This document shows positions 1,574 through 18,635 of a stretch of 24,000 nt of DNA, piece after piece (position 1 is the first letter of the stretch; the number at the start of each line of letters is the position of its first letter). The position numbers and the translations under genes were made by a program. The notes below the pieces were generated by a model. It was not told the origin of the DNA. It saw only the letters and a program-made list of their open reading frames with translations, and made no database searches. The DNA lies in assembly GCA_038327915.1 (NCBI GenBank), contig JBBQLO010000005.1, positions 1-24,000 of the forward strand. Reading direction: 5' to 3'. This DNA is from Parcubacteria group bacterium. Its GTDB lineage: Bacteria; Patescibacteriota; Minisyncoccia; Phycocordibacterales; DATDWN01.

Positions 1574-1696
1574 TTTCTTATCCTCAATATATAAAATCTT
1601 TAAATACATTCCAACCATATAGGATTTATCACTTAATATGGTTATAATAACTTTTGCTTCGATACATGTGCCAACCAGAGATATGTTTTTAAATCT

Positions 1697-2068
1697 ATGC
1701 AAACAGATATCAACCAAAAAATCATATTCGTCTACAACGCAGATTCTGATTTTTTTTCCCAAATTAAGGACCTTGTGATAAAAATTACCACACCTGAGAA
1801 ATATACGTGCAACTTATGTGCGGTTACATATGGTCCACTCGAGATGAAAAATGAATGGAAGAACTTTCTCAAAACATTACCACAAGAAAAAGTCTTTATG
1901 CACAGAGATGAATTTCACTCGGCATACCTACATTTGTCAGAAATTCAATTACCAGTGATTTTGAGTGAAGAAAACAACATAATTAAAGTCGTTGTTTCGG
2001 CTGATGAGATCAACCGAGAAAAAACACTTTCTGGCCTTGAACATTTGGTCAGGAGTCGCTTAAAATAA
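1697..2068 (+). CDS. Small conserved-looking hypothetical protein, 123 aa, with a CNLC (CxxC) motif; possibly thioredoxin-like
   Basis: ORF with motif YTCNLCAVTYGPLEMKNEWKNFL. Function not established. Confidence 0.5.
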   Translation: MQTDINQKIIFVYNADSDFFSQIKDLVIKITTPEKYTCNLCAVTYGPLEMKNEWKNFLKTLPQEKVFMHRDEFHSAYLHLSEIQLPVILSEENNIIKVVVSADEINREKTLSGLEHLVRSRLK

Positions 2069-2094
2069 GGATATTCACGTTTATATCAGAGGTA

Positions 2095-2547
2095 TTAGAA
2101 GTTGCAGACTGCTGGAGAACCCCACCAGCCATTTAAGCTCATGTTGTTGGCTACGCCTGTTTTACACCAGCTACCCGTCACAGCTGTATAAACATATAAT
2201 CCATACTGGTCTGTACCCCCACTATTACCAACACCATAGTAATGATCTCCGTCTGCGATTAAATTTGCCGGAATACTGGGTATGTATGTCGGTACAAGAG
2301 CGGCTACTAATGTTGGGTCGGTGAGCAGAACATCGCCGTTTCCGACCGGAGATTGGGGATAGGTACCATATGTACTGTAATACAGAGCCAGCGCATTTTC
2401 AACAGCTTTTATTTCAGTTATTCGTGCAACGTCTTTAGCTTTTGTTCTGGCGGTATTCAATGACGCGAGCACAATTGAAGAAAGTAGACCAATAATGGCA
2501 ATGACCACGAGAAGTTCGATGAGTGTAAAACCACGAGAAGATTTCAT
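2095..2547 (-). CDS. Type IV pilin / pseudopilin-like protein with prepilin N-terminal methylation motif
   Basis: N-terminus MKSSRGFTLIELLVVIAIIGLLSSI: G|F cleavage site, Glu5, hydrophobic helix. Confidence 0.9.
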   Translation of the reverse strand: MKSSRGFTLIELLVVIAIIGLLSSIVLASLNTARTKAKDVARITEIKAVENALALYYSTYGTYPQSPVGNGDVLLTDPTLVAALVPTYIPSIPANLIADGDHYYGVGNSGGTDQYGLYVYTAVTGSWCKTGVANNMSLNGWWGSPAVCNF

Positions 2548-2795
2548 AATTGTTTTGAATATGTGCCGTTAATTGATGGCACCGGATTTTTTGGAGATCC
2601 AGTCCCGTTGTATTTGAAAAATAAAATACCAGCCATACCTAATAAAACTATACAAACCACTATGAGCACTGCATTCACGTATTTTTCAGGTATACCCACC
2701 TTTTCAACAAAACGGAACATGGTTGATTTTTGTTCAACATATGTCTGTTTTTTATATAAACCAATATTTTGTTCATCAAATTCTACGTGTGACAT
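2544..2795 (-). CDS. Small single-pass membrane protein, 83 aa, translationally coupled to the pilin gene
   Basis: ATGA start/stop overlap at 2544-2547. One hydrophobic helix (AVLIVVCIVLLGMAGILFF). Confidence 0.55.
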   Translation of the reverse strand: MSHVEFDEQNIGLYKKQTYVEQKSTMFRFVEKVGIPEKYVNAVLIVVCIVLLGMAGILFFKYNGTGSPKNPVPSINGTYSKQL

Positions 2796-2828
2796 AATAA
2801 TAAGTTTGGTTGTTTTTTTGACCCTACT

Positions 2829-3182
2829 TTATAACGGTAAATCAAGTCCAAAAAATCCAGGTCCGGTAAAGAGGAGGGAAATCAAAACAATTGCAGAGAG
2901 AGTGTGAAGTAAAACAGCATCTCGTGTCAGTGGTGCGACTTTTTTGTTTGCCCAATCGTCAAAACCTATTATAAAAAAACCAAAAAGAGCCGCTATTTGT
3001 GTGTATAGTCCAATGAATAGAAAAATGCCAGAAACAATATAAATAACAGACATCCATTTGTATGGTTTTTTAAAACGTTGTAGGCCTGTAAATACGAGAA
3101 AAGCCCCAACAGCTAGACGTAAAATGCATGGAGCAATAAAGCTATATGTGAGTAGATTTGGAAATACAGAGAGAGGATGCAT
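2829..3182 (-). CDS. DoxX-like small integral membrane protein, 117 aa from the internal ATG
   Basis: Multi-helix hydrophobic protein (LRLAVGAFLVFTGLQRF...). I prefer the ATG at 3182 over the track start at 3245. Confidence 0.55.
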   Translation of the reverse strand: MHPLSVFPNLLTYSFIAPCILRLAVGAFLVFTGLQRFKKPYKWMSVIYIVSGIFLFIGLYTQIAALFGFFIIGFDDWANKKVAPLTRDAVLLHTLSAIVLISLLFTGPGFFGLDLPL

Positions 3183-3285
3183 GCGTATAGTATATGATAT
3201 TTGTATTTTTAGAGCAATAAAAAAGAATAATCTCTGGCTACCCATACATACACATGGTGTCTGTAGGTTGTGCTAGAGTGTGTGT

Positions 3286-3759
3286 ATGAAAAAAGAGGTT
3301 ACCATTCTCCTTCACAACATTCGTAGTGCTCATAATGTTGGGTCTATTTTTCGTACGGCTGATGCGGTGGGAGTGACAAAAATATATCTTTCGGGATACA
3401 CACCCACTCCACTGGACAGATTTGGTTGTGCTCGTAAAGACTTAGCAAAAGTGGCGCTTGGAGCAGAAAAAAGTATTTCATGGGAACAAATTATCGATCC
3501 GAAAAAACTTATAAAAAAATTAAAGAAAGATAATTTTCAGGTAGTAGCTTTTGAACAGTCAGTTCGGGCCATGGATTACAAAAAAGTAAAAATTTCTCAA
3601 TCAGTTCTGGTGCTGGTGGGAAGCGAAGTGGGGGGTATTGAGCAAGAGTTTTTGTCTCTCTGTGATATTGTGGCGGAGATTCCTATGAAAGGGATAAAAG
3701 AGTCACTCAATGTTTCTGTTGCTTTTGGTATTGCTCTTTTTCGAATGTTGGGAGTGTAA
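3286..3759 (+). CDS. SpoU/TrmH-family (SPOUT) RNA 2'-O-methyltransferase
   Basis: Motifs HNVGSIFRTADAVG, LVLVGSEVGGI and ESLNVSVAFGIALF. Confidence 0.85.
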   Translation: MKKEVTILLHNIRSAHNVGSIFRTADAVGVTKIYLSGYTPTPLDRFGCARKDLAKVALGAEKSISWEQIIDPKKLIKKLKKDNFQVVAFEQSVRAMDYKKVKISQSVLVLVGSEVGGIEQEFLSLCDIVAEIPMKGIKESLNVSVAFGIALFRMLGV

Positions 3760-3766
3760 TTCAAAT

Positions 3767-4687
3767 TTAGTATTTTAATTCAGCTACTATTTTTCCAGCG
3801 CCGTCATAAAGAATGATGTCTTCTCTTTCACTTTTCCACAGCGTGCTACTACGTTTCAAATAGACTCGCCATTCTTTAGTGTAGAAATTTGCGTCATTTT
3901 TATGAGTATTTATACATGATGTATAATTTATTTTTGAATAAATAAAATTAGTGCATTCGTAGCTCCAGTTGGCCGGTAGATTTGCTGTTTGAATCTGGCA
4001 AGAAGACATCGAGTTGATGTAATCAAAGCATGCATCGTTAATAACTTGATTGGCGGGAATACTCGAAAGATTTTCATTGCGTGGAGCAGGGCAGTTGGTC
4101 GAGAGATACGGGGTGAAATTTTGAAATTGTGATAAGTAACCCGAACATATATTCACTTTAAAACTTGAGCCGTTTGGTGAGAGACCCGTATCAAGATATA
4201 TAGTGTCGCCAGGGGAGAGTGCCACTGTACTTTCGCTATTTTTTGAATTAGCGAAAAAGAGTGTGGACGCATTAGGAATATTTACAATAACACCGCTTTT
4301 TTTACTTGCCAATGTAAAACCAAGAAGGGGTATGGTGGTGGTAGATTGTTCGTTTTCATGTAAAACAATATATTCTTCCGAAACTGTTTGTGAACGAGAG
4401 ACATATTGAATTAAAATTTGTCCGTAATATTTTGAATGAGATTGGTTTTCTTTTCTGACTTCTTCCGCAACGTCCATTTGTTGTTTGAGAGTATCAACTT
4501 GCGTTTGTGCTGTTTGGATTTGTCCAGCAATACTGGTGTCTGTACTTTTTTGTTCTGTGTAGCTGTTTGATGATTGTGTTGCAGTGGTTGTGATGGTCGG
4601 GTGGATAGCGTTTTTTGCCCCACCAATGAGTCCAACTGCGATGATGCCAAGAATCACTATAATACCTATCCATTCATCTTTTTTCAT
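3767..4687 (-). CDS. Membrane-anchored secreted protein, 306 aa, Cys-rich C-terminus; possible lamin-tail-like domain
   Basis: N-terminal TM helix, Thr/Gln-rich linker, then a beta-rich region (EYIVLHENEQ...LSPGDTIYLDTG). Confidence 0.55.
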   Translation of the reverse strand: MKKDEWIGIIVILGIIAVGLIGGAKNAIHPTITTTATQSSNSYTEQKSTDTSIAGQIQTAQTQVDTLKQQMDVAEEVRKENQSHSKYYGQILIQYVSRSQTVSEEYIVLHENEQSTTTIPLLGFTLASKKSGVIVNIPNASTLFFANSKNSESTVALSPGDTIYLDTGLSPNGSSFKVNICSGYLSQFQNFTPYLSTNCPAPRNENLSSIPANQVINDACFDYINSMSSCQIQTANLPANWSYECTNFIYSKINYTSCINTHKNDANFYTKEWRVYLKRSSTLWKSEREDIILYDGAGKIVAELKY

Positions 4688-4707
4688 ATTGTTATGTTAT
4701 CTGACTA

Positions 4708-5610
4708 TTATACCTGATGTATGTTACAAAAATGAGCACTCCTACTCCCAATTACCTTCCGTGTAGTTATTCCAGAACAACCAGTCTTTAAACATTTTTT
4801 TCCAGTTCGACGATATGCTTTGTGAGAATTTTGAAAACCTCCACGTTCCCCATGTATGTTGCGATAGTCAGACATAGAGTCACCCCCAAGATTGATTCCC
4901 GCGACAAGAATTTTCTTCATCGCAGCCCAGATTTTTTTCCTTTCAGATGCTGTGAGTGAGGACACTCTGCGTTCGGGATGTACGCTTGACGCCCAGAGTA
5001 TCTCATCTGAATAAATATTACCAACGCCAGCAATAACCGATTGGTCCATAAGGACGCTTTTTATTTTTCCACTTTTTTTCGTATTTAGTTTAGATGTAAA
5101 TGTTGGAAAGGGGAGATCGTCGAGTGGTTCTGGTCCGAGACCAGCAAGATCAACAACATCTGCACGTTTGGAAGTTTCAAAAAGAATCACTTTGGCGAAT
5201 TTTCGCATGTCAGAAAAAGCGAGATGTTTGCCGTTTGAAAGAGTAAAAATAAGGTGGATAAATTGGTTAAATGAATCGGAAAGAAGTTTCTCTTCACTTT
5301 TCCACACGCCCGTAGGACTCAATGTGTATTTTCCATACAACAGATGTCCGGTCATTTTCATGTGAATGAGAATAGTTTTATTGCCGGAGAGGTGTATCAA
5401 GACATTTTTCCCGCGACGTTCGGCATTGTTAAATTTTGTTCCGACGACCTCTCGTTTAAATTTTTCAAAATACTTTTTGTTTTTTATGGTATCCGTACGC
5501 TTGTTTGCTGTACGAATGTAGTAATCCGTCCAGACATCAGTAATAGAAAGCCCAACAAGAACTTCATTAAGACCGGTGACGGTGGTGGTGACTTCAGGAA
5601 GTTCAGGCAT
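4708..5610 (-). CDS. mutM: Formamidopyrimidine-DNA glycosylase (Fpg/MutM)
   Basis: N-terminal MPELPEV (catalytic Pro2/Glu3). H2TH region VIAGVGNIYSDEILW. C-terminal Cys/His zinc-finger-like segment. Confidence 0.9.
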   Translation of the reverse strand: MPELPEVTTTVTGLNEVLVGLSITDVWTDYYIRTANKRTDTIKNKKYFEKFKREVVGTKFNNAERRGKNVLIHLSGNKTILIHMKMTGHLLYGKYTLSPTGVWKSEEKLLSDSFNQFIHLIFTLSNGKHLAFSDMRKFAKVILFETSKRADVVDLAGLGPEPLDDLPFPTFTSKLNTKKSGKIKSVLMDQSVIAGVGNIYSDEILWASSVHPERRVSSLTASERKKIWAAMKKILVAGINLGGDSMSDYRNIHGERGGFQNSHKAYRRTGKKCLKTGCSGITTRKVIGSRSAHFCNIHQV

Positions 5611-5633
5611 GTTACTTTGGTTTTATTAGCAAA

Positions 5634-6215
5634 TTACTTGTTTAAATTTTTCAAGGCCGCACGTATTTTTTCTTCTGTGTTTCCTCCTTCCGACTTTTTT
5701 AGAGCCTCTCGTGCGTCGCGTTCAGAATAGCCGAGTGTTTGGAGAGCCAGGAGTGCATCAACATCTGCCGACATGCTCGAAGATTCGTCTTCTTCGCTTC
5801 CTATGCCGAGAGATGTAATTTTGTCTTTTAATTCAAGGACTATTTTCTCCGCCACTTTTTTTCCAATACCAGAGACTTTCGTCAAGTGGCTTATATCGCC
5901 TGTGCCGATGGCTTGTCGAAGGGTACCCAGAGTGGCTACGTTGAGAATCCCCATTGCCGATTTTGGCCCGATACCGGAGACAGTGAGGAGAAGTTCAAAA
6001 AAATTCAACTCTTTGCGATTTTGAAAACCATACAGATCGAGGGCATTTTCGCGTACCGCAAGGTATGTCCAAAAACTAATTTTTGGTTTTTCCTCTTTTG
6101 GCATTTCTGGTAGGAGGGCTGTGTTGGTGTGTATTTTATAGCCTACTCCAGAGACATCGAGAATAACAGACTTAAGGTCTGTGGAGAGAAGAGTGCCTGT
6201 TAAGTGTCCTATCAT
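5634..6215 (-). CDS. ruvA: Holliday junction branch-migration protein RuvA
   Basis: MIGHLTGTL N-terminus. Two helix-hairpin-helix motifs (VSGIGPKSA, VSGIGKKVAEKI). C-terminal domain III. Start moved to 6215. Confidence 0.9.
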   Translation of the reverse strand: MIGHLTGTLLSTDLKSVILDVSGVGYKIHTNTALLPEMPKEEKPKISFWTYLAVRENALDLYGFQNRKELNFFELLLTVSGIGPKSAMGILNVATLGTLRQAIGTGDISHLTKVSGIGKKVAEKIVLELKDKITSLGIGSEEDESSSMSADVDALLALQTLGYSERDAREALKKSEGGNTEEKIRAALKNLNK

Positions 6216-6282
6216 GTTTGCATTGTACCGCATTCACGTCACCCAAGCCAGAATGAATGAAGCGCCAGCAAAAAACTACGAG

Positions 6283-6311
6283 TTGATTTATTTTAGTAAG
6301 TACGCTACTAT
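6283..6311 (+). promoter_or_regulatory. Sigma70-like promoter for rpsT: TTGATT, 17-nt spacer, TACTAT
   Basis: -35 box at 6283-6288 and -10 box at 6306-6311. The ATG at 6318 is only 6 nt after the -10 box. Confidence 0.4.
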
Positions 6312-6317
6312 CTTCCT

Positions 6318-6581
6318 ATGCCAATCACAACATCAGCTAAAAAAGCTCTCCGAGGATCAAAGCGCAAGCGCGCCTTCAATTTGCGTAAAAAAGACATTCT
6401 TGGACAAGCCATTAAAAAAGTGAAAAAACTTGTTGGTGAAAAAAAACTTGCAGAAGCTGCAGAATTTTTCCCGCGAGTTCAAAAAATAATCGACAAGTCA
6501 GTTAAAACAGGTTTACTTAAAATAAACACCGCTTCACGTAAAAAAGCCCGTTTGTCTCGAATGATGACTAAAAATAAGTAG
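6318..6581 (+). CDS. rpsT: 30S ribosomal protein S20
   Basis: 87 aa, very basic, with an MPITTSAKKALRGSKRKR start typical of S20. Confidence 0.85.
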   Translation: MPITTSAKKALRGSKRKRAFNLRKKDILGQAIKKVKKLVGEKKLAEAAEFFPRVQKIIDKSVKTGLLKINTASRKKARLSRMMTKNK

Positions 6582-6608
6582 AAGGGGATAAGTAGTAAAA
6601 ACGCTCAC

Positions 6609-7205
6609 ATGAAAAAATACCTTGCAGAAGCACTCGGTGCATTTACTCTCACTTTTGTTGTGGCTCTTTCTCTCGCTGGTAAGTTCCCTGTATCGACACC
6701 AGTACTCGCGGCTCTCGTACTTGGAATGTTTGTGTACTCACTCGGACATATTTCTGGTACACACATTAACCCAGCGGTGACTATAGGCGCATGGTCAATT
6801 AAAAAAATAACCACGGTAGACGCCGTGGTGTATGTAGTTGCTCAGTGTGTCGGAGCACTTCTTGCTTTTGGCCTCGCCACCTTAGTGGGAGTCAGTGCAA
6901 CTAGTAGTTATATTGTTGCAGGTAATACTCTCGGTATTGGTCTTGCTGAAATGTTCGGGACTTTTTTCTTTACCTTTGGTATTGCCTCAGTTATGTACGG
7001 AAGGACACCAAGCCAGCTTTCGGGAGTTGTTGTTGGAGGCTCGCTCCTTCTTGGCATCAGCATTGCCGCCTTACTCGGTTCAAACGGAATTCTCAACCCC
7101 GCCGTTGCACTCGGTATCGGATCAGTGAGTTTTATGTACCTCTTTGCTCCTATTGTAGGTTCAATCGTAGGTATGAATGTCTATAAGTACTTAGGAAATA
7201 TTTAG
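6609..7205 (+). CDS. MIP-family channel (aquaporin/glycerol-facilitator-like)
   Basis: Two NPA boxes (HINPAVT and LNPAVALG) in a six-helix hydrophobic protein. Confidence 0.85.
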   Translation: MKKYLAEALGAFTLTFVVALSLAGKFPVSTPVLAALVLGMFVYSLGHISGTHINPAVTIGAWSIKKITTVDAVVYVVAQCVGALLAFGLATLVGVSATSSYIVAGNTLGIGLAEMFGTFFFTFGIASVMYGRTPSQLSGVVVGGSLLLGISIAALLGSNGILNPAVALGIGSVSFMYLFAPIVGSIVGMNVYKYLGNI

Positions 7206-7224
7206 GATAGGTGCTAATTTCATT

Positions 7225-7296
7225 GCCCTCGTCGTTCAACGGATAGGACACTGGCCTGCGAAGCTGGAAATACAGGTTCGATTCCTGTCGAGAGCA
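7225..7296 (+). tRNA. tRNA-Arg, anticodon GCG; no encoded CCA
   Basis: Manual cloverleaf. Acceptor gccctcg/cgagagc has one C3:A70 mismatch. D-arm gttc/ggac. Anticodon loop is cuGCGaa. T-arm acagg-ttcgatt-cctgt. Discriminator A. Confidence 0.8.
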
Positions 7297-7568
7297 CAAA
7301 ATGAGTTTACGAATTTTTGTGCTCTCGAAGTAAGAGCATGTTATGCTCTTACGTCAGGAATCGAAAATCTGTGATAGTTTTCTTGAGTGTAGTCACGAAA
7401 AGAAAACAGAACAGATGTACAGTTCCTGTAAGGAAAGATTCCTGTCCTGTAAGGAATCGAAAAGCGGAGCGGGTACCAATTGAGTGCAATTGGTCGCGAG
7501 CTGCGGACACGACAAAAATTTTTGACGGAAAATTTTTAGTTGTGGACGATTCCTGTCAGGAATCGACA
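7279..7568. repeat. Cluster of direct and inverted copies of the tRNA T-arm/3' acceptor sequence
   Basis: Direct copies of (c)gattcctgtc at 7437-7446 and 7547-7557 (original at 7279-7289). Inverted copies of (c)aggaatcg at 7355-7363, 7452-7460 and 7557-7565. 13-bp perfect hairpin 7289-7301/7315-7327 uses the tRNA 3' end. Confidence 0.7.
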
Positions 7569-7725
7569 GTTCTGTATAAAATCTACATGAGGCTACAGAT
7601 CATATGTCAAAATAATGCACATTGGAAAATAGTGCTAGAGGAGAGAGATTTTATGTTTCTTTTCGCTTACGCGGTCCAAAACAATCTAACTCACACTATT
7701 TTTCAATGTACTTTTGTCATATGAC

Positions 7726-8160
7726 CTATAGCCTCATAGAGACTTTCAATAATACTTTAAAATAAGAGCGTCTGTTTCGCTTTTTTAAGCTCATCAGTCG
7801 GAGTACACACTCCGAGACAGATGGGGTGTTTGTAGCACCTCCAGTTTTGGAAACAGCAGTTGGACTGTTTCCTGTAAACATGGTCACGTCGTCCCACCAA
7901 CTTGTGGAAAGAACTATAGCCCAATGCTTTTGATAACAACACGGGCTTTTTTTCCAGACGCACTCGTGAGCACACTGCCCCACGCCAGTGGGTTGTGTCG
8001 TGCCGGGTGCTGGTCGCAGTGAGCTGGATCCGAACACCCACCATTCAGGCCTGGTGGGTGCTGTTCCTTGACCGAGGTACTGCGCCATGTAGCCAGCCTC
8101 TTTCAAAGCCTCCACAATTTTTTCGGCATTTGTATGCCGGACCCTAATTTTTCTTGTCAC
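7726..8160 (-). CDS. Questionable 144-aa ORF with GTG start; the N-terminal part is plausible, the C-terminal part reads through a non-coding repeat and the hammerhead
   Basis: GTGA start/stop overlap with the upstream 57-aa ORF. However, residues from about 80 onward cover the repeat at 7845-7916 (out of frame relative to its other copy) and the ribozyme. Confidence 0.3.
   Translation of the reverse strand: MTRKIRVRHTNAEKIVEALKEAGYMAQYLGQGTAPTRPEWWVFGSSSLRPAPGTTQPTGVGQCAHECVWKKSPCCYQKHWAIVLSTSWWDDVTMFTGNSPTAVSKTGGATNTPSVSECVLRLMSLKKRNRRSYFKVLLKVSMRL
7771..7821 (-). ncRNA. Type III hammerhead self-cleaving ribozyme
   Basis: Minus strand reads UCUGUC|UCGGAGU-GUGU-ACUCCGA-CUGAUGA-GCUU-AAAA-AAGC-GAA-ACAGA. 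Full core present (C3-A9, G12-A14, A15.1:U16.1, C17). Stem I is 7 bp, stem II is 4 bp starting G10.1:C11.1, and stem III is 5 bp and open. Predicted cleavage lies between 7816 and 7815. Confidence 0.85.
7845..7916 (-). repeat. 3' module, copy 1: TAGTTCTYY...GTTGG...hairpin GGAAACAG/CTGTTTCC...ACTGGAGG
   Basis: About 70 nt alignable with 10405-10476. Confidence 0.6.
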
Positions 8161-8330
8161 TTTCTCTTTCCTAGGGGCAGTAATACCCCCTTGCCAATCC
8201 CTGCCAATATAAAAGCGATTGAGGCGAAGAGAATTCCTTCACCCACATTGACGGGTTGCCCCATCAATTTTTCTCCAATTAGGTATCCTGCGGTTAAGCA
8301 GGAAAAAATAGCTAACAAAAAAATTCTCAT
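8157..8330 (-). CDS. Small two-helix membrane protein, 57 aa
   Basis: ATG at 8330 preceded by CUCUGGGAGGGGUGUAGG. Two hydrophobic segments. The stop overlaps the next GTG start. Confidence 0.5.
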   Translation of the reverse strand: MRIFLLAIFSCLTAGYLIGEKLMGQPVNVGEGILFASIAFILAGIGKGVLLPLGKRK

Positions 8331-8450
8331 CCTACACCCCTCCCAGAGGTTGTTTGCGTATGCCCGCCGGCAAATCATTCCGCACCATTTAACCATCTTG
8401 TGTTATCAACACACAGATGACGAAGTGGTTGGGAAGGGGGAAGTGCACAG
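8331..8450 (-). promoter_or_regulatory. Structured 5' leader, copy C (divergent paralog of copies A and B)
   Basis: Shares five elements with A/B: CCCCCUUCC anti-SD, a variable hairpin, GGUGCG, a hairpin with GGCG loop (UGCC/GGCA), and GCAAACAACCUCUGGGAGGGG followed by AUG. Confidence 0.5.
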
Positions 8451-8524
8451 TAACATGTAAATGTGACCGAGTACCTCCCCCAGTAAAGAACATCTGGTGT
8501 ATGTCTACTGACAACACCAGCAGT

Positions 8525-8552
8525 GAGATGGTGACCGGTACCATCTCTTTTT
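8525..8552 (+). terminator. Plus-strand intrinsic-terminator-like hairpin inside the minus-strand island
   Basis: gagatggt-gaccgg-taccatctc followed by ttttt. The T-run is on the plus strand only. Confidence 0.4.
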
Positions 8553-8622
8553 GTACACATACTCTCCACTTCGGTCCTTCGGGAGAGATACGTTTCAGTG
8601 GGTAACGTATAACCAGGGAGAA

Positions 8623-8964
8623 CTAGGAAATTTTAGCGAGCTTTGCTGCCTCCGTCTTTTTTTTAGCGTAATCCTTTGCCCAGGACAGGGCAACATCAAG
8701 GTGGGGGCCCTTGACCGAGGTCATATCGACCCCGGCCACCTCTATTTCCATGTATTCCACCCACCTCCACTTCCTAGAATAGAAGTAGAGGGAGATTGGC
8801 TTCCCACCAATCTCTCCTACAATCTCCTCTATTTCCCGTTCGCCCCCATCCTTGGGGGCGAGCATGTCCTGAATCTTTTCTTTTTTTAATTTCCACCAAA
8901 TAAAAACAAGAAACAGCATATAGCCTATAATCATCACAATTCTGACATAAATTTCAAACAGCAT
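8623..8964 (-). CDS. Hypothetical protein, 113 aa, with an N-terminal TM helix
   Basis: ATG lies 6 nt after GGGAGGGGGCG of leader A. Hydrophobic N-terminus and charged C-terminal domain. Confidence 0.5.
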   Translation of the reverse strand: MLFEIYVRIVMIIGYMLFLVFIWWKLKKEKIQDMLAPKDGGEREIEEIVGEIGGKPISLYFYSRKWRWVEYMEIEVAGVDMTSVKGPHLDVALSWAKDYAKKKTEAAKLAKIS

Positions 8965-9134
8965 ATTACGCCCCCTCCCAGAGGCTTTTGCACATTGGTC
9001 TGCCGACCAGTCTCAATTTCAAGCTTTCACTTTGGCTGAGACCACGCACCGACTTCTGATCAACTCACGATGTATGTGTTTTTCAACATATACATCCGAA
9101 GCTGAATAAGAAGGAGGACTCTGGTAATTAAACC
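8965..9134 (-). promoter_or_regulatory. Structured 5' leader, copy A
   Basis: The 82-nt block 8969-9050 differs at only 3 positions from 10256-10337. It is followed by a 50-nt variable hairpin insert (9051-9100), then a second shared block from 9101. Confidence 0.6.
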
Positions 9135-9287
9135 ATTGTCATCCGATAAACAACGCAGATTTTGTATAATGGGTATCTGCTGACCCATCCGTATTTTTCC
9201 TATTAGGAAATACGGAACCTGAAAGAACTTTGAGGCAGAGAGTCAGGCTCTGTCTCAATTACGATGTCCCGCTGACTCGGGATGAAA

Positions 9288-10130
9288 CTACTTCTGAATG
9301 AGTAACGTGGGGAGGACGCCCTCTTCCCAATCAGGTTTTTTGTACTTGATCGGGGTAACTCTGTAGGCGTTCTTGTAGAGATCAAGGTACACCCCTTTGT
9401 GCATCGGCTTTTCAGCCGATGGGGTGAATGTCAAACTCCACTGGTTTGTAGCCAGTTTGGTCACCTCGAGGGAATTTCCGCTCGTGGCGGATTTAAAAAA
9501 AAGTTGACTGATGTCCTCCTCATCGAAAGCCTCCCAACCTCCGAAGCTTCCTCGGTTTTCGACTGGGATTCCCGTTCTCCCAGCTTCCAAATTCACGCGC
9601 CGTCCACCACAACTCTGACTTGCGACGTGTGCTTGGAGTGGGTTCACCCCCGGCACATACTCGAGTTGATTCGTGAGTGTGTTTGCGATGTTTGCGACTG
9701 CACTCCACGAAATAATTTTTTCCGGCAGAGGCTTGAGCGCCTGCCCAAGCTCTCCTGCAAAAAGCAGCACCAGCTTCTCTGCCCGAGTTCCGAGGTACGA
9801 ACCTTGTTTCCTAATCCACGGTTTGAAAATCTCGTGGTTTGAGTGGCTTAAACCTTTAAGCCGTTTGATCAATTTATTTCTCACCACCGAGTCACCGGTT
9901 AGTGCGATCATCCGACCATAGTCGGAGGTCTTGTCCCGACCATATGTCTCAATTTCTTCGGCAACAGCAACTGCTGCCACCAAATACCAGCCAATGTCTT
10001 CTATCCCGATCTGGTTTTCTTTCGGTCTTTGTGCGGCAGCTCGGAGAGCCTGCACGAGCATACTGCCCGTGCCAATCTCTCTTTTTTCTACTATCTGGCA
10101 CATAAGTGCCTTCGAATTTTCTACAATCAT
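9288..10130 (-). CDS. Orphan protein, 280 aa, family not recognised
   Basis: Clear coding periodicity with GC-rich codons. AAGGAGA SD lies 5 nt before the ATG at 10130, which I prefer over the track start at 10160. Confidence 0.7.
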   Translation of the reverse strand: MIVENSKALMCQIVEKREIGTGSMLVQALRAAAQRPKENQIGIEDIGWYLVAAVAVAEEIETYGRDKTSDYGRMIALTGDSVVRNKLIKRLKGLSHSNHEIFKPWIRKQGSYLGTRAEKLVLLFAGELGQALKPLPEKIISWSAVANIANTLTNQLEYVPGVNPLQAHVASQSCGGRRVNLEAGRTGIPVENRGSFGGWEAFDEEDISQLFFKSATSGNSLEVTKLATNQWSLTFTPSAEKPMHKGVYLDLYKNAYRVTPIKYKKPDWEEGVLPTLLIQK

Positions 10131-10253
10131 TGCTGTCTCCTTAGCCCCACTCGCCAGCAATAACGAGGGGGTCTGTTTTGGATTTTGATTGAGACTTGCG
10201 CCTCTTGTTAATAAAAAAATATTTCAATCAACAAGAGACGCGAGTTCAAAATA

Positions 10254-10403
10254 TCCGCCCCCTCCCAGAGGCTTTTGCACATTGGTCTGCCGACCAGTCT
10301 CAATTTCAAGCCTTCGCTTTGGTTGAGACCACGCACCTTATTCCTATCAGCTTTCGAATTAATTCGTTAGCTGAATAAGAAGGGGGACTCGGTAGTGAAC
10401 CGT
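10254..10403 (-). promoter_or_regulatory. Structured 5' leader, copy B; its cognate start codon is lost
   Basis: Same blocks as copy A, with a 32-nt variable insert (10338-10369). ATT replaces the ATG seen in copy A. Followed by a possible 13-codon TTG uORF (10208-10249) and a 12-bp hairpin (10198-10241). Confidence 0.6.
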
Positions 10404-10404
10404 G

Positions 10405-10476
10405 TCCCCCAGTTTGGAAACAGTGGTTGGACTGTTTTCTGAAAACTACTCCTGCCAACTCAGAAAAAGAACTACC
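10405..10476 (-). repeat. 3' module, copy 2
   Basis: Begins at the TAG stop of the 64-aa ORF. Contains hairpin GAAAACAG/CTGTTTCC and then ACTGGGGGA. Confidence 0.6.
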
Positions 10477-10666
10477 TCCCGAAAAAGAACTTTCTTACTG
10501 TCGGTGTCATCCACCAGCAGCATCTCAGTTCCCACTCTGAATAATCTAGGAGGGCCTCCTCCACCTCTGCCTGGTTTTGATAGCCGTCCACTAAGGGCGG
10601 CCCTCCAAGACATTCTGGTCGCCCATATCTCCACCCTTCTTTTAACATACTAATAAACATCTTCAT
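10472..10666 (-). CDS. Small hypothetical protein, 64 aa
   Basis: ATG preceded by GAGGAAAGAGGAAAAAA. The SD can pair with an upstream CCUCG segment. Confidence 0.4.
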   Translation of the reverse strand: MKMFISMLKEGWRYGRPECLGGPPLVDGYQNQAEVEEALLDYSEWELRCCWWMTPTVRKFFFGR

Positions 10667-10936
10667 TTTTTCCTCTTTCCTCGACTTAACCCCCGAGGTG
10701 GGTTTTTGAATTTCAGGGATTTTGCAACCCCTCTTTCCAGCACTAACAAAACTTACGCGATCCTAATGCTGGAGAAGAGGAATAACACTGTGGTTATCTT
10801 TTACAGAAATTTTTTCCACGTTATCCTTACTTCTCTATGATCACCCTTCCTATCCGCAGATATTCCAGATAATTTTTGTCAGTGAACTTTCAACTCTCTT
10901 TTTATTGAGAGAAGTGGAGAGGCGACTTTGTATAAT

Positions 10937-10965
10937 AATTTAGTTCGCGTCCACACTTCCTTCAA
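10937..10965 (-). promoter_or_regulatory. Candidate sigma70 promoter for the island's minus-strand transcript
   Basis: On the minus strand: TTGAAG (10965-10960), 17-nt spacer, TAAATT (10942-10937). Confidence 0.3.
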
Positions 10966-11287
10966 TAAGTTATTTGGCCTATTGTGATAAAACAAAACAG
11001 GCGACGAGCTCTTTGAGGGAGCCAATCGCCTGCTTTCTACGATATATCGTAATGCAAGTGTTGGTTGTTTGGTGTTCTAAACATAAAGTATCCCGGCGAG
11101 TATTGCTGTTGGTATCAGCGGGGTACGATATGTTGGGCACCAAGACTCTCTCCTCTAAAGATTGTCTTAAATGTTTTTTTTTAAGTACTTTGTTTTATCT
11201 TGAAAATTCTCATCTCCTTTAATAATATAATCATATCATACTATATTAAAACTGTCAAATACTTTTCTATTTACTTTTTTTAATACT

Positions 11288-11316
11288 AAAAAAAGCCTTA
11301 CGTAAAGCCATTTTTT
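11288..11316. terminator. Weak bidirectional terminator-like element
   Basis: A-run, imperfect palindrome gccttacgtaaagc, then T-run. Lies downstream of the minus-strand gene that ends at 11413. Confidence 0.3.
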
Positions 11317-11412
11317 AGTATCATTTATAAAAGAGGAAGTTTTTGGATATTCACATCTCATCTTCATATTCGATTTGGTATGCTCAGTTTGGAACTTTCA
11401 TATTGAGATGTG

Positions 11413-11868
11413 CTAAAATCCAAAATATATAAGCAATTTCTCAAGGAGTGGCTCGGTGTGCTGCACTTCTGGCAGGTGATCTGATAAAAAAAGATGAATA
11501 TGTTCAGCATTTCCGTTGCCCATGAGCACGACGATGTATGGAGAAAGCTTTTTTTCAGATTTAAAAAATACTCGAGGATATTGATCTTGTGTCTCAACCC
11601 AGAATGACTGCAGATTTGTGTAAGGGTAGTATGTCTTGTTTATCTGGACACCGAGGCGTGTGAGTTTGATGTCTATTATTTGAGGTTTGCGGGTAGCGTA
11701 TAAAGTGAGAACGCTCGCAGATACTACCACTAATAATCCAAAAATAAGATTGTTTAAAATTATGGCGATAAGGGCGATAGAAAGAGTTACCGCTCCCACA
11801 ATCCAATACCAGTCGGTGTTTTTCTCGGTGTGAATATATTCATGTGTTTGCCAGGAGAGTGTTTCCAT
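11413..11868 (-). CDS. Two-helix membrane protein, 151 aa, unknown function
   Basis: Hydrophobic hairpin WYWIVGAVTLSIALIAIILNNLIFGLLVVVSASVLTLY. I prefer the start at METLSW. Confidence 0.6.
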   Translation of the reverse strand: METLSWQTHEYIHTEKNTDWYWIVGAVTLSIALIAIILNNLIFGLLVVVSASVLTLYATRKPQIIDIKLTRLGVQINKTYYPYTNLQSFWVETQDQYPRVFFKSEKKLSPYIVVLMGNGNAEHIHLFLSDHLPEVQHTEPLLEKLLIYFGF

Positions 11869-11999
11869 GTGTAGAGTATAGCACTGAATAAAGTGCATAC
11901 CAATTTCTGATTGCGTTAGTTCAGAGTAACCCAATTGTGAGGGGCTGTACAAATATACTAAAAAATGCTAGAACTAAAAGGCAAAACCGTTTTAATACA

Positions 12000-12464
12000 A
12001 TGAAACCAAAAACAGAAAAAAAAATAATTCAGGTATTGTCAGGGGTCCTTTTTTTTATGATTCTTTGTCTTGGTTTATTCTTAGATCTCCATAGAGATCA
12101 AGTTTATGCAGCAGTTTACTCTGCCAGACTTATTAAGCGTCCAGAGCCATTTACCGAAATGTATTTCAACAACTACACTGCTTTCCCCAAGCAGAGTGTC
12201 TCAGGCATGAGGTTTTCTTATTCCTTTACGATCCACAACATGGAAGTTGCGACATCTGCATATCAGTACTCGACATATTTCGAGTATCCAAACGGTTTTA
12301 AAGTAGGTATGGGGGAAGGAACAATCACACTTCATTCTCTCGAATATTATGTTGCAACCACTACATACACGTTCAAAAATTCAAATTTGCACGGGAAGGT
12401 TGTGGTAGATCTTTTAGGACGTGATCAGCATATAGATTTTTTACTTCCCGATGTAAATCAATAA
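12000..12464 (+). CDS. Membrane-anchored hypothetical protein, 154 aa, first gene of the glycan cluster
   Basis: N-terminal TM helix then a beta-rich domain. I prefer the start at MKPKTEKK. Confidence 0.6.
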   Translation: MKPKTEKKIIQVLSGVLFFMILCLGLFLDLHRDQVYAAVYSARLIKRPEPFTEMYFNNYTAFPKQSVSGMRFSYSFTIHNMEVATSAYQYSTYFEYPNGFKVGMGEGTITLHSLEYYVATTTYTFKNSNLHGKVVVDLLGRDQHIDFLLPDVNQ

Positions 12465-12475
12465 TTATATATTTA

Positions 12476-13276
12476 ATGACGTATATGTATGGCAAAAAAA
12501 TCACAGTGCTTATCCCTTGTTATAACGAAGAAGAGGGCATTGCGAATGTGATCAAGAGTTTTCCAAAAGAAAAATTGTTTGAGCAGGGTTTTTCTCTCGA
12601 AATAATTGTTATTGACAATAATTCAAAAGATAAAACTTCAGAAATAGCCCACTCGCTAGGAGCGTTAGTTATACACGAGCCAAAAAGTGGTAAAGGTAAT
12701 GCACTCCGCCACGGCTTCCAATTAATTTCAGAAGATACAGATTATGTTGTGATGCTTGACGGGGACAATACATACCGTCCAGAAGAAATACTTCGTCTCA
12801 TAGAGCCGATTCATTCTGGTTTTTGTGATGTTGTTATTGGGTCGCGTCTCGGTGGACGTATTACCGAGGGATCAATGAGTGCTCTGAACAGGGCAGGCAA
12901 TTGGATATATTCGCATCTTGTTCGATATTTTTATGGGGTCAACGTGACTGATGTATTAACGGGGTACTATGCGTGGAGAAAAGATGCTCTCGAACGACTC
13001 CGGCCTCATCTTTATTCAGAGGGATTTACTATTGAGATGGAAATGGTCACTAAAATGGCACAACTCGGGGAGGAAATATACTGCGTACCTATTAGCTATG
13101 ACACTCGAGCCGGACATACCAATTTAAGCCCATTGCATGATGGTGTGCGAATTTTATGGGTATTGATTAAAAATATGTTTTGGAGACCAGTGGACATACC
13201 TGGGTATGTTTCGAATCATTCGGGAGAGTCACTCCATAAACAGTCAAAAGGAAGTAATGTTTTTATAACTAAATAA
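12476..13276 (+). CDS. GT2-family glycosyltransferase (polyprenyl-phosphate sugar transferase-like)
   Basis: Motifs VLIPCYNEEEGI, VIDNNSKDKT, GKGNALRHG and MLDGDNTY. Confidence 0.85.
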   Translation: MTYMYGKKITVLIPCYNEEEGIANVIKSFPKEKLFEQGFSLEIIVIDNNSKDKTSEIAHSLGALVIHEPKSGKGNALRHGFQLISEDTDYVVMLDGDNTYRPEEILRLIEPIHSGFCDVVIGSRLGGRITEGSMSALNRAGNWIYSHLVRYFYGVNVTDVLTGYYAWRKDALERLRPHLYSEGFTIEMEMVTKMAQLGEEIYCVPISYDTRAGHTNLSPLHDGVRILWVLIKNMFWRPVDIPGYVSNHSGESLHKQSKGSNVFITK

Positions 13277-13281
13277 AATAT

Positions 13282-14007
13282 ATGAAACTCTCTGTTGTCA
13301 TCCCAGCTCTGAATGAAGAATCGGGAATTAAAGCTACTATTGAGCAGATACCTATACGAGCATTGGAAGCAATGGGTTTTTCTGTTGAAATTATTGTTTC
13401 TGACAATGGATCTACCGACAAGACGGCAGAAATATCTAGAAAAGCTGGCGCTACGGTAGTGCACCAGCCTCTTCAGGGGTACGGTAACGCATATCGTGCT
13501 GGATTTGAATATGCAAGCGGAGATATTATCGCCACAGGGGATGCTGACATGACATACCCTTTTGACATGTTGCCAGAGCTTTTAAAAGAAATGAAAAAGA
13601 ATGAATATGATTTCGTCAGTACGGATCGTTTGGGAACTTTGGATTCAGGGGTTATGACTTTCTTTCACGTCTTTGGAAACTGGATGTTGAGCACTGCTAC
13701 ACGAATACTTTTTAACTGGCCATTTAGTGATTCTCAGTCTGGAATGTGGATTTTTAAACGTACAATATTGAAACACCTCGACCTTTATTCGGAGGGGATG
13801 CCTTTTTCTCAGGAGTTAAAAATCGAGGCATATAGAAAAGGTTTTAAATGCGGAGAGTTTCCTATTGAGTATAGGGCTCGTATTGGAGAAGTAAAGCTCA
13901 ATACTATTCGTGATGGTATGGGCAATATCACACAGCTTATAAAAATGAAATTCAATCAGAAACAAAAAAGAAAAAACAGTTTTTTTTCGGAAACGATACA
14001 GAATTAA
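13282..14007 (+). CDS. GT2-family glycosyltransferase
   Basis: Motifs VVIPALNEESGI, VSDNGSTDKT, GYGNAYRAG and GDADMTYP. Confidence 0.85.
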   Translation: MKLSVVIPALNEESGIKATIEQIPIRALEAMGFSVEIIVSDNGSTDKTAEISRKAGATVVHQPLQGYGNAYRAGFEYASGDIIATGDADMTYPFDMLPELLKEMKKNEYDFVSTDRLGTLDSGVMTFFHVFGNWMLSTATRILFNWPFSDSQSGMWIFKRTILKHLDLYSEGMPFSQELKIEAYRKGFKCGEFPIEYRARIGEVKLNTIRDGMGNITQLIKMKFNQKQKRKNSFFSETIQN

Positions 14008-14023
14008 ACATAAAGAACTAAAT

Positions 14024-16306
14024 GTGAAAAAATTAAGAAAGATTCTAATAGTTAGCCATTATTACCCACCTCATGTAGGTGGTATTGAAATTGTGGCCTA
14101 CAACCAAGCAAAAAGGTTGGCTGGGGAAGGACACGATGTGACCGTTGTGACGAGTAGTATAGGCTCAAAAGAAAAAGATACGGTAGTAGAAAATGTACGA
14201 GTGGTGCGTGTTGGCGCGTGTAATTATTTTGAAAGATTTGGCATCCCTTTTCCTATTTTGTCACCAAGAATCTGGTTTGTGCTTTGGAAGTTTTCGAAAG
14301 AAGCTGATATTGTGCATATTCATGATGTATTTTATATTACTTCCTTTGTTGCGGCAGTTTCAGCACGATTACGAGGAAAAACTATTGTTCTCACACAGCA
14401 CGTGGCTATGATTGCACACCCGAATCCGCTCGTTGTTGCACTTGAGCGCCTCGTGTACGCGACCACCGGGCGTATTATTTTTTGGTTTTCAAACACAGTT
14501 ATATATTACAATGAACGGGTCAAAGAATTTATTATCAGTAACGGAGTTTCACCACATAAATTTTTAGTCTTAAAAAACGGAGTAGATAGAAATTTATTTC
14601 ACCCCGTCTCTCTGGCGGAAAAAAAAGTTTTGCGTGCAAAACATGGATTAAATCAACAAAAAAATGTGTTGTTGTTTGTTGGCAGATTTGTACCTAAAAA
14701 GGGTTTTGATAAAATTCTTTCTATTCAGAATCCTGAGTATACAATAGTGTGCGCGGGGGGTAAAAAGCCGGAAGGTGTTTTTCCGCATGCTGTATTTATG
14801 GGAGAAACAGACCAGAAAACTTTGGCAGAATTATATCAACTCGCTGATGTTTTTATACTACCTTCAGAGTGCGAGGGTTTCCCACTTGCAATCCAGGAGG
14901 CAATGTCTTCGGGCCTACCCATTATTACTACGCGGGATAATGGATACAGAGAGTATTATTTTGATGAAAATAGGATTTGTTTTATCGACGCGAGAGACGA
15001 GTACACATTACGCACAGAAGTTGAAAAAATATTCAATAATAGAGATTTACTACGTTCTATGTCGCAATACTCAGAAGAGTACGCAGAAAAATATTTTAGT
15101 TGGTCTTTTGCTGTTTCGCAACTTGAAATAATATATGATTCCGCTTTACAAATACGATTGGCCCTAGTAACTGACGCCGCATATCCTTTTAATAAGGGTG
15201 GTAAAGAAAAACGCATCTTTGATCTCTCTACCTTGCTCCAAAAGAACGGATTTAAGGTAACAATTTATTGTATGAAGTGGTGGAAAGGAGGTAACACAAT
15301 AGTGAAAGACAATGTGTTATTTACAGCTATCAGCCCTTATTATCCTCTATATGCAGGAAACAGACGATCACTTTCTGAGGCAATCTTTTTTTCTTTACAC
15401 TGTCTCAAACTTATTTTTAAAGATTTTGATGTCATAGATGTTGACCATATTCCACATCTTACTATTTTTACTGCGAAGATCGTATGTTTTCTTAAAAGAA
15501 AACCAATGGTAGCAACGTGGCACGAAGTGTGGGGAGAAAAATACTGGCGAACGTATCTCGCCCCAGTCACGGGCTTTATTGCCTACACATTGGAAAAAAT
15601 GAGCATGCGACTTCCTGATGTAATTATTTCTGTATCGCCTCATACCACAGAGAGATTAAAAGCAGTGCTCGAAAAATATAAAAATGAGATTATTACTATC
15701 CCAAATGGAATTGATGTGGACTGTATACAGAATAGTCCAAAACTTAATTTCACTTCAGATATTATATTCGCAGGACGTCTATTGTCTCACAAAAATGTGG
15801 ACGTATTGCTACGAGCCGTTTCTCTTATACAAAAAATAATGCCAGACGTTCGCGCGTGTATTGTCGGGAATGGTCCAGAGAAAGAAAATCTTCAAGCTTT
15901 GGTGAAGGAATTGGGTATTGAAAAAAATGTTTCATTTTTAGGATTTTTTGATGATCAGCGAGAATTGTATGGAACAATGAAAGCTTCAAAAGTTTTTGTA
16001 TTACCTTCTACGCGTGAGGGATTTGGCATTACGGTTATAGAGGCATATGCGTGTGGACTTCCGGTTATCACCATCGATCATCCACATAATGCGGCAAAGG
16101 ATCTTATTTATGAAAGTTCGGATGGATTGTCTACTGGTATAGTCGTACCACTCCAACCAAGCGCTCTTGCGGATGCCATGATGCGGTGTATAAAAGACTT
16201 TGGAGACAGAAAAGACAAAGAAATATATACATCAAAAGCATTGCAATATAATTGGAATAATGTCGTACAAGATGTTATTCACGTATACAAAAAAACATAT
16301 GAATAA
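14024..16306 (+). CDS. Fused double GT4-family glycosyltransferase, 760 aa
   Basis: Two complete GT-B modules. Each has a PPxxGG N-terminal region and an E-x7-E region (EGFPLAIQEAMSSGLPII and EGFGITVIEAYACGLPVI). Confidence 0.8.
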   Translation: MKKLRKILIVSHYYPPHVGGIEIVAYNQAKRLAGEGHDVTVVTSSIGSKEKDTVVENVRVVRVGACNYFERFGIPFPILSPRIWFVLWKFSKEADIVHIHDVFYITSFVAAVSARLRGKTIVLTQHVAMIAHPNPLVVALERLVYATTGRIIFWFSNTVIYYNERVKEFIISNGVSPHKFLVLKNGVDRNLFHPVSLAEKKVLRAKHGLNQQKNVLLFVGRFVPKKGFDKILSIQNPEYTIVCAGGKKPEGVFPHAVFMGETDQKTLAELYQLADVFILPSECEGFPLAIQEAMSSGLPIITTRDNGYREYYFDENRICFIDARDEYTLRTEVEKIFNNRDLLRSMSQYSEEYAEKYFSWSFAVSQLEIIYDSALQIRLALVTDAAYPFNKGGKEKRIFDLSTLLQKNGFKVTIYCMKWWKGGNTIVKDNVLFTAISPYYPLYAGNRRSLSEAIFFSLHCLKLIFKDFDVIDVDHIPHLTIFTAKIVCFLKRKPMVATWHEVWGEKYWRTYLAPVTGFIAYTLEKMSMRLPDVIISVSPHTTERLKAVLEKYKNEIITIPNGIDVDCIQNSPKLNFTSDIIFAGRLLSHKNVDVLLRAVSLIQKIMPDVRACIVGNGPEKENLQALVKELGIEKNVSFLGFFDDQRELYGTMKASKVFVLPSTREGFGITVIEAYACGLPVITIDHPHNAAKDLIYESSDGLSTGIVVPLQPSALADAMMRCIKDFGDRKDKEIYTSKALQYNWNNVVQDVIHVYKKTYE

Positions 16307-17468: not shown

Positions 17469-17488
17469 AAAATAATTAGTAGGGTTAT

Positions 17489-18628: not shown

Positions 18629-18635
18629 AAAAATA

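Follow-up and report, generated by a model that had tools for sequence, protein, structure and literature searches.

The DNA that we analysed, referred to as the window, comprises 24,000 nucleotides of a Parcubacteria group bacterium (assembly GCA_038327915.1, contig JBBQLO010000005.1, positions 1 to 24,000), and it carries beside a tRNA-Arg gene a GC-rich, minus-strand unit of approximately 3.7 kb (about 7576-11258). This unit, the island, consists of a promoter, a leader of about 550 nt, 4-5 small open reading frames (ORFs), a hairpin, a hammerhead ribozyme and a 3' RNA domain. We favour, at about even confidence, the reading that it is a horizontally acquired, non-autonomous cargo module framed by RNA elements, residing at a variable spot by tRNA-Arg in the chromosome of a Parcubacteria-like member of the Candidate Phyla Radiation (CPR). 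The frame, i.e. the 5' boxes, the hammerhead and the 3' domain, recurs around different cargo in a second locus, L010, located in a metagenome-assembled genome (MAG) labelled as Saccharibacteria. This recurrence with other genes suggests, at the sequence level, an undescribed modular RNA-framed accessory element and not a dead prophage. A preliminary description of the window had proposed either a decayed prophage or satellite fragment or a self-contained RNA-centred accessory module; the latter fits the recurrence of the frame. The same description had placed the block at 7726-10970: the block is real, but the unit reaches further at both ends, to the promoter and the first leader box on one side and to the end of the 3' domain on the other. 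The elements of the frame are the following, in the order of transcription.

11230..11258, minus strand: sigma70-like promoter, TTGACA-17-TATGAT with a TG extension, the best site of the region (11 of 12 matches), with a predicted start near 11222
10667..11222, minus strand: long structured 5' leader of roughly 550 nt, without Rfam match
11169..11144, minus strand: leader conserved box 1, 26 nt, holding the 12-mer TAGAGGAGAGAG at 11157..11146; 100% identical in L010 (28-53)
10916..10905, minus strand: leader conserved box 2; 100% identical in L010 (204-215)
10787..10774, minus strand: leader conserved box 3; 100% identical in L010 (285-298)
10735..10723, minus strand: leader conserved box 4; 100% identical in L010 (344-356)
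7843..7822, minus strand: pre-ribozyme hairpin, immediately 5' of the hammerhead
7823..7769, minus strand: type III hammerhead (Hammerhead_3, RF00008), Rfam 44.6 bits, E=1e-7
7576..7745, minus strand: conserved structured 3' RNA domain of 170 nt, with an outer stem formed by 7745..7722 and 7599..7576
7652..7636, minus strand: 17-nt box AAAAUCUCUCUCCUCUA, enclosed by the outer stem of the 3' domain; 100% identical in L010

The promoter comes after the palindromic terminator of the upstream host gene (11283-11321), and we infer from these sequence signals that the whole module is transcribed as a single RNA from its own promoter.

The L010 block is approximately 8 kb long and lies on one strand, with a GC content of 0.43-0.57 versus 0.30-0.37 in its host. 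Most of its ORFs have strong Shine-Dalgarno (SD) sites (-5.5 to -9.3 kcal/mol), while the neighbouring host genes have values of about 0. Its cargo comprises a short protein related to the 280-aa protein of the window, an HrpA/HrpB-like DEAH-box RNA helicase of 673 aa (3612-5633; TIGR01967, E=4e-98), truncated relative to bacterial HrpA, and several unknowns. The Hammerhead_3 match of L010 was found downstream of this cargo and on the same strand (7751-7805; 36.5 bits, E=3e-4), and the four leader boxes stand in the same order as in the window. When the other proteins of the island and of L010 were searched by tblastn against all the loci that we collected, the C-terminal domain of the 280-aa family was the only one in common. 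This domain is 41% identical between the window and L010, whereas the boxes of 26 and 17 nt are 100% identical; conservation is thus much higher in the RNA frame than in the cargo. The flanking genes are wholly different (MIP and tRNA-Arg on one side and glycosyltransferases on the other in the window; MFS and RNase J in L010). We also searched for the frame boxes in the other collected loci, and they were present in the window and L010 only.

The core of the hammerhead is intact in the window (CUGAUGA at 7797..7791 and GAAA at 7777..7774), and L010 has the same core. Helices I, II and III have 6-7, 4 and 6 bp, respectively, the first two closed by loops and the third open, and the cleavage triplet has the NUH form in both loci (GUC in the window, UUC in L010), with the cut predicted after C7816 (GUC|U). 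The two hammerheads are 88% identical, and the double changes G-C to A-U and U-A to C-G preserve helices I and II. It was the single ribozyme match at E<=10 over 7200-11500, and L010 also has a single one. With Rfam, both at the gathering threshold and at E<=10, the tRNA and the hammerhead were the only accepted matches over the island, leaving the repeated leaders, the 5' leader and the 3' domain unmatched and no other ribozyme classes, riboswitches or known RNAs; weak matches to RNA-OUT, ylbH, speF and miRNAs were far under threshold and were dismissed. Because the pre-ribozyme hairpin stands immediately 5' of the hammerhead, the mRNA, once cleaved, would end in a stem-loop, six bases and a cyclic phosphate.

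The RNAalifold consensus of the aligned hammerhead and 3' domain, built from two sequences, contained 58 pairs, 11 of them with double changes, and 9 of these 11 were in the 3' domain. In the leader, boxes 3 and 4 pair as a hairpin; the window and L010 both preserve it, and one double change was counted. The preliminary description had seen the block as embedded in structured RNA and ending in a ribozyme, which the folds and the Hammerhead_3 match bear out. The 17-nt box of the 3' domain contains the exact reverse complement of the 12-mer of the first leader box: the 12-mer has 2 matches in the window, inverted to each other, versus 0.07 expected, and the same arrangement was found in L010. 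The predicted duplex of the two boxes has an energy of -22 to -23 kcal/mol, versus -8.6 +/- 2.9 for shuffles, and a chance origin of the complementary 12-mers appears unlikely. We considered the 12-nt inverted boxes as transposon ends similar to those of miniature inverted-repeat transposable elements and rejected this, given that conservation continues beyond both boxes and a target duplication is absent.

The composition of the island differs from that of its host. Sliding-window GC was 0.43-0.52 across 7750-10750, with negative GC skew, and 0.30-0.44 in most of the flanks; over 7726-10970 it was 0.468, against 0.388 at 1-7225 and 0.372 at 10971-24000. In the 5 minus-strand island ORFs the per-gene GC was 0.47 and the GC of third codon positions (GC3) 0.52, compared to 0.38 and 0.32, respectively, in 18 host ORFs (Mann-Whitney p=7e-4 for GC and p=6e-5 for GC3). 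A block GC-richer than both flanks had been noticed before by eye, and both the windowed GC and the codon usage agree with that; the contrast had been put at one half versus one third, which is too strong for the measured values of about 0.47 versus 0.38. The flanks encode ordinary bacterial genes: Fpg, RuvA and an aquaporin of the MIP family to the left, and glycosyltransferases to the right. Among named hits, the aquaporin matched best in CPR MAGs of the Parcubacteria type. GC is also high (0.51) at 1-560, a stretch that contains long nested inverted repeats and is cut by the window edge; we found no convincing ORF in it and no Rfam match at E<=0.01, and from its sequence it may be another structured RNA.

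The translation signals differ in the same way, as had also been described. The duplex energy with the anti-SD sequence in the 20 nt 5' of the start was on average -7.9 kcal/mol for the island ORFs and -0.4 kcal/mol for the host genes (p=0.0015). The island start codons are preceded by GGGAGGGGG, GGGAGGGG, AAGGAGA or GAGGAAAGAGGA, whereas the sequences 5' of host start codons are A/T-rich and essentially free of SDs, and a -10-like box frequently stands within a few bases of the start. Such boxes (TATAGT, TATAAT, TATACT) were observed 5-12 nt 5' of host starts, for example at 674, 4687, 11868 and 17489. The SD-less starts together with the -10-like boxes suggest leaderless or SD-independent initiation in this CPR host.

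Between the 5' leader and the ribozyme we identified the following cargo and repeated RNA elements.

10472..10666, minus strand: ORF of 64 aa, SD GAGGAAAGAGGA; homologues sought in family libraries only
10408..10474, minus strand: first copy of a post-ORF motif (motif A), TAGTTCTTT followed by a GAAACAG-loop-CTGTTTC hairpin; repeat families D2 and D6
10256..10410, minus strand: structured leader, copy 1; 102-nt repeat with 89% identity, plus repeat family D5; fold z=-4.0
10193..10243, minus strand: long A/U-looped hairpin between leader copy 1 and the 280-aa ORF, seen in the sequence
9288..10130, minus strand: ORF of 280 aa, SD AAGGAGA; helical N-terminal domain and conserved alpha/beta C-terminal domain
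8969..9146, minus strand: structured leader, copy 2, with SD GGGAGGGGG directly 5' of the 113-aa ORF; from repeat and fold
8623..8964, minus strand: ORF of 113 aa with an N-terminal hydrophobic (putative transmembrane) segment
8337..8375, minus strand: partial leader, copy 3, a GCC-GGCG-GGC hairpin and CCTCTGGGAGGGG with the SD; repeat family D4, three copies
8157..8330, minus strand: ORF of 57 aa with two hydrophobic segments
7726..8160, minus strand: last ORF, 144 aa as written, whose GTG start overlaps the preceding stop; it crosses motif A and the ribozyme
7842..7916, minus strand: second copy of motif A, 5' of the ribozyme, from the repeat search

Three of the island ORFs are thus preceded by a repeated structured leader, whose final hairpin pairs with the SD. 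The two full leader copies, of about 150 nt each, fold alike into two hairpins, a branched domain and the terminal SD-pairing hairpin (z=-4.0 and -3.4). In copy 1 these are hairpin H1, hairpin H2 (UUAUUCAG...GAUAG..AAUAA), the branched domain and the SD-sequestering hairpin GCCUCU-GGGA-GGGGGC, and the H1/H2 motif is also found in L010 (at 2616 and 3457). An RNA-OUT identity for the hairpin at 10193..10243 was rejected, the Rfam match being weak and far under threshold. On the plus strand, antisense to the island, the extended -10-like TGTATAAT occurs at 9164-9171 and 10931-10938, both in non-coding leader, and these two sites may be antisense promoters.

The 144-aa ORF, which had been listed as possible, is present as written but is probably mis-delimited, because it overlaps the repeated RNA motif and the ribozyme. 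With one A less in the A7 run at 7947-7953, the last ORF has 81 aa (7914-8160) and ends at a TAG inside the CTATAGTTCTTT motif (7908-7916); the run may stem from a sequencing error or act as a slippery site. A TAGTT context is also found at the stop codons of three further island ORFs. No match was found for any island ORF in Pfam, PHROGs, PADLOC or NCBIfam, and an exact-product look-up of the 113-aa ORF returned no record.

The island proteins had been taken for orphans, which does not apply to the 280-aa protein. An exhaustive HMMER search with it recovered 49 homologues at E<=1e-3 (22 at E<=1e-10), while a word-indexed search recovered only the protein itself. Five homologues are full length, with 31-46% identity, and many have 140-200 aa and match only the C-terminal domain; the closest one belongs to a Doudnabacteria MAG. 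The family is marked by the motifs 'VSWExVRNIAN...GGWxAFxEEDV' and by invariant W, H, R, E, GW, D, S and P...G.Y. It had no match in Pfam, PDB, PHROGs, PADLOC or NCBIfam, no Pfam family recurred over the 49 members, and a profile search of PDB sequences found nothing. Structure prediction, which had been proposed as a check, gave a confident fold: the AlphaFold2 (AF2) model from the family alignment (pLDDT 91, pTM 0.85) has a helical N-terminal and an alpha/beta C-terminal domain, and Foldseek found no significant neighbour in PDB or BFVD.

In nearly all loci with sufficient flanking sequence, the family gene coincides with a local peak of GC, a pattern repeated in many independent contigs, one of them of 381 kb. 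It was found just downstream of tRNA-Tyr (L006), tRNA-Arg(CCG) (L018) and tRNA-Ile (L021 and L022). In L066 it interrupts a ribosomal-protein operon, with rplB and rpsS as its neighbours, and in L067 it is flanked by two rve transposases, with methylase and GmrSD/HNH genes next to them. Because its genes lie at GC peaks by tRNAs, in a ribosomal-protein operon and between transposases, we regard the family as roving accessory cargo.

Several of these loci have features of their own. In L066 (1835-3479) the family gene has its own 5' untranslated region (UTR) and terminator; a structured, GC-rich stretch comes after it, as does a new promoter for rpsS. In the Doudnabacteria contig L005 there are two GC-rich cassettes with a repeat of about 140 nt after each and cloverleaf-like repeats upstream (4410-4490, 5770-5840, 5000-5140, 7045-7205); none of these repeats had an Rfam match. 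Another conserved 5'-UTR motif, GTGTCCCGGCC..AAAATGGGATG..ACGCAGTGCCAGT..CGCCACGCGG, precedes the family gene in both loci (L005 5860-6020 and L066 2420-2560), i.e. in two unrelated MAGs, and is a candidate cis-regulatory RNA. Finally, in L022 (7259-7320) and also in L021, the tRNA and the family gene are separated by an incomplete second copy of the 3' half of tRNA-Ile that bears an insertion; judged by its sequence, it is the kind of scar expected from tRNA insertion.

At the left side of the island, two features separate it from the host genes.

7225..7297, plus strand: tRNA-Arg(GCG), convergent with the island
7298..7575, no strand assigned: spacer with hairpins built of copies, on both strands, of the tRNA T-arm 11-mer CGATTCCTGTC

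The 11-mer has 5 copies in the window, all within 7279-7565 and one of them the tRNA's own, versus 0.19 expected. Palindromic hairpins arise from these copies, and the tRNA 3' end together with sequence downstream of it makes a hairpin that resembles a terminator. At the far end of the island there was no copy of the 11-mer, and the 22-mer of the tRNA 3' end is unique to the tRNA in the window. As the copies stop at 7565 and the 22-mer is unique, the island is not bracketed by attachment (att) sites (attL/attR). It is also inverted relative to tRNA-Arg, opposite to the other tRNA-linked family genes. The adjacency to the tRNA that had been pointed out therefore stands, while its use as an integration target does not follow, because the repeats occur only between tRNA and island and the island is inverted. 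The nearest homologues of the aquaporin reached no more than 74% identity, and no synteny was seen between their contigs and the window.

The preliminary description had recognised no integrase, transposase, reverse transcriptase, capsid or replication gene. In agreement with this, Pfam, PHROGs, PADLOC and NCBIfam revealed no recombinase, plasmid or replication gene and no phage gene, such as one for a capsid, terminase or portal, in the window island, and in L010, beyond the RNA-helicase assignment, only weak helicase-type matches to that same protein. Neither the family protein, the island DNA nor the sequence boxes of the frame had relatives in IMG/VR, the INPHARED phages or the PLSDB plasmids, and a scan of IMG/VR with the leader, the hammerhead, the 5' box and the family profile found nothing. 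A gapped pattern of the 3' stem gave 37 matches in IMG/VR, taken as chance since only one had even a weak box match.

These results make it unlikely that the island derives from a prophage, satellite or integrative element that used tRNA-Arg for entry and then decayed, losing its integrase and structural genes, with the hammerhead as the leftover of a phage ribozyme. The island is indeed tRNA-adjacent and compositionally foreign, its spacer contains tRNA-derived fragments, distant family members lie near integrase, restriction-modification and transposase genes, and a persistent link of prokaryotic hammerheads with phages and prophages has been described (PMC6155905). However, the lack of any phage or recombinase match, of relatives by protein or DNA in the three databases and of an att-like repeat at the far end speaks against such an origin. 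Moreover, what the window and L010 share is an ordered RNA frame and not gene remnants, which random decay would not leave.

We judge as equally improbable a native, vertically inherited and immobile operon, hypervariable in CPR, that would encode small membrane or surface proteins, carry its own RNA regulators and be GC-rich for the sake of RNA structure. The absence of a mobility gene, defined ends or target duplications is compatible with it, the conservation of the RNA frame far above the cargo is what purifying selection predicts, and the non-coding parts of the island are GC-enriched too (0.41-0.49). It is contradicted by the GC3 of the ORFs and by an SD use opposite to that of the host, by the presence of the frame in only 2 of the collected CPR loci with entirely different flanking genes, and by a cargo family scattered over unrelated contexts, including between transposases.

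The same-strand ORFs with repeated structured elements between them resemble an integron-like cassette array, whose units of structured repeat and ORF would be excised as circles by a recombinase encoded elsewhere. Leader repeats bracket the family gene with a period of 1287 in the window, 841 in L010 and, with shorter repeats, 1461 in L005. In addition, one Logan contig (L001, equal to 8995-10311 of the window) has exactly one 1287-nt period plus a 30-nt (k-1) terminal overlap, the signature of a circular molecule or a looped unitig. We consider a real circle less likely: the contig begins exactly at the start of the exact repeat, as a loop of the de Bruijn graph would, and such a loop is therefore the likelier explanation. 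Furthermore, we found no IntI-like gene and no GTTRRRY/RYYYAAC cores at the boundaries, the repeats carry SDs and resemble translation leaders, and solitary family genes have no flanking repeats. A cassette array is, for these reasons, quite unlikely.

An assembly chimera or contamination, i.e. a GC-rich fragment of another organism joined to a CPR contig, would account for the sharp shift in GC, codon use and translation signals, and Logan contigs do end within the island, both at 7769 and at the repeats. Nevertheless, in an independent Logan assembly (SRR19962015) Fpg, RuvA, S20, the aquaporin, the tRNA, the spacer, the 3' domain and the first ribozyme bases are contiguous with 100% identity. 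Since this assembly spans host genes to ribozyme and L010, from a second MAG, has a like junction of the same frame with low-GC CPR genes, we consider a chimeric join very unlikely. The GC peak of the family gene in many independent contigs, including the one of 381 kb, also speaks against it, and so does the 5' leader, which is low in GC and grades into the host flank behind a host-type terminator and promoter. The Logan contig L028 (equal to 4620-7769 of the window), which includes host genes and the tRNA, has its end at 7769, within the 3' strand of helix III of the hammerhead, and this might reflect strain-level variation beginning at the ribozyme.

It is likewise highly improbable that the island is a DNA copy or the template of a circular RNA processed by hammerheads, of the retrozyme, viroid or Obelisk kind: the type III hammerhead, complementary boxes that could join the ends, the very structured GC-rich RNA and the RNA helicase of L010 would suit it, but one ribozyme per unit with no tandem copy means no second cut to give the 5'-OH for circularisation, the 3' box lies downstream of the cut and outside the mRNA fragment, and there is no reverse transcriptase or RNA-dependent RNA polymerase.

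Several points weigh against the RNA-framed cargo module that we favour. The frame rests on two full elements, so that the 5' and 3' boxes show no covariation, and their conservation could reflect sites acting at the DNA level instead of RNA pairing. The hammerheads of both elements score under the Rfam gathering threshold of 48.5 (44.6 in the window and 36.5 in L010), and helix III is short and missing from the minimum-free-energy folds. We found no ends, target duplications or empty sites, so that the case for mobility consists of distribution and composition. The hosts are labelled according to MAG annotations and best hits, and the support of the second assembly covers the left side, with the right-hand junction (about 11260-11413) outside it.

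The features of the module can be combined in a putative mechanism. The leader hairpins would gate translation of module mRNAs that rely on their own strong SDs in an SD-less host. Standing in for a terminator, the hammerhead would cut after C7816, leaving the mRNA with a hairpin-protected 2',3'-cyclic-phosphate 3' end and freeing a 5'-OH RNA of about 240 nt made of the ribozyme and the 3' domain. Through its pyrimidine box CUCUCUCCUCUA, this freed RNA could then pair with UAGAGGAGAGAG in the 5' leader of the transcript from which it came, possibly for feedback or end-to-end bridging. With repeated leaders on both sides of the family gene in the window, L010 and L005, recombination at them could exchange cargo between frames, and movement between genomes would rely on functions supplied in trans. 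A bolder proposal, which we regard as rather doubtful, is that the island represents a new class of non-autonomous CPR mobile module, defined by RNA and not by a recombinase, whose released 3' RNA pairs with its own leader. If true, this pairing might act in regulation, bridge the ends or even allow the module to be transferred as RNA.

To our knowledge, almost no mobile elements or RNA regulators have been described in CPR bacteria. In this block the hammerhead has a fixed and conserved place at the end of a foreign operon, with a hairpin before it and a leader-complementary RNA domain after it, and this architecture makes 3'-end definition and small-RNA release directly testable roles. The block also illustrates foreign gene expression in a host whose own genes have no SD sites, and it reveals an uncharacterised, confidently foldable protein family that behaves as roving cargo.

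In terms of known systems, the block combines a genomic island with a genomic hammerhead. Similar to tRNA-linked islands, it is adjacent to a tRNA, deviates in GC and codon use and carries accessory cargo, of a family that recurs by other tRNAs; it differs in the lack of an integrase and of a bracketing repeat of the tRNA 3' end, in its inverted orientation and in having RNA ends instead of att sites. It shares with integron arrays the small same-strand ORFs, each with a repeated structured imperfect element, and a cargo that varies between arrays. Unlike in integrons, there are no IntI or attC cores, the repeats stand upstream of the ORFs and include a ribosome-binding site, and the unit has its own leader and a ribozyme-capped end. 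With retrozymes, viroid-like RNAs and Obelisks it has in common a type III hammerhead, very structured RNA and small uncharacterised ORFs, but here we found a single chromosomal DNA copy of 3.7-8 kb with one ribozyme, a bacterial promoter and SDs.

The ribozyme itself resembles the type III hammerheads of bacteria and phages (RF00008) in its CUGAUGA...GAAA core, open helix III, GUC/UUC triplet and intergenic position at the end of an accessory block. It departs from them in its sub-threshold scores in the window and L010, in its CPR host and in its place inside a larger conserved frame (pre-ribozyme hairpin, 170-nt 3' domain and leader-complementary box) without phage genes. The literature that we searched contained no paper tying hammerheads to Saccharibacteria or CPR biology. 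The roles of prokaryotic hammerheads are unresolved, and they are often linked to mobile DNA and phages (PMC6155905). An example of a ribozyme-defined mRNA 3' end is the discontinuous hammerhead in mammalian Clec2 3' UTRs (PMC6155905). Both in such ribozyme 3' ends, or in small RNAs derived from 3' UTRs, and in the island, a predicted self-cleaving motif downstream of the last ORF would free the downstream RNA; the Clec2 system belongs to another domain of life, and in the island the downstream fragment is conserved and bears a box complementary to its own leader.

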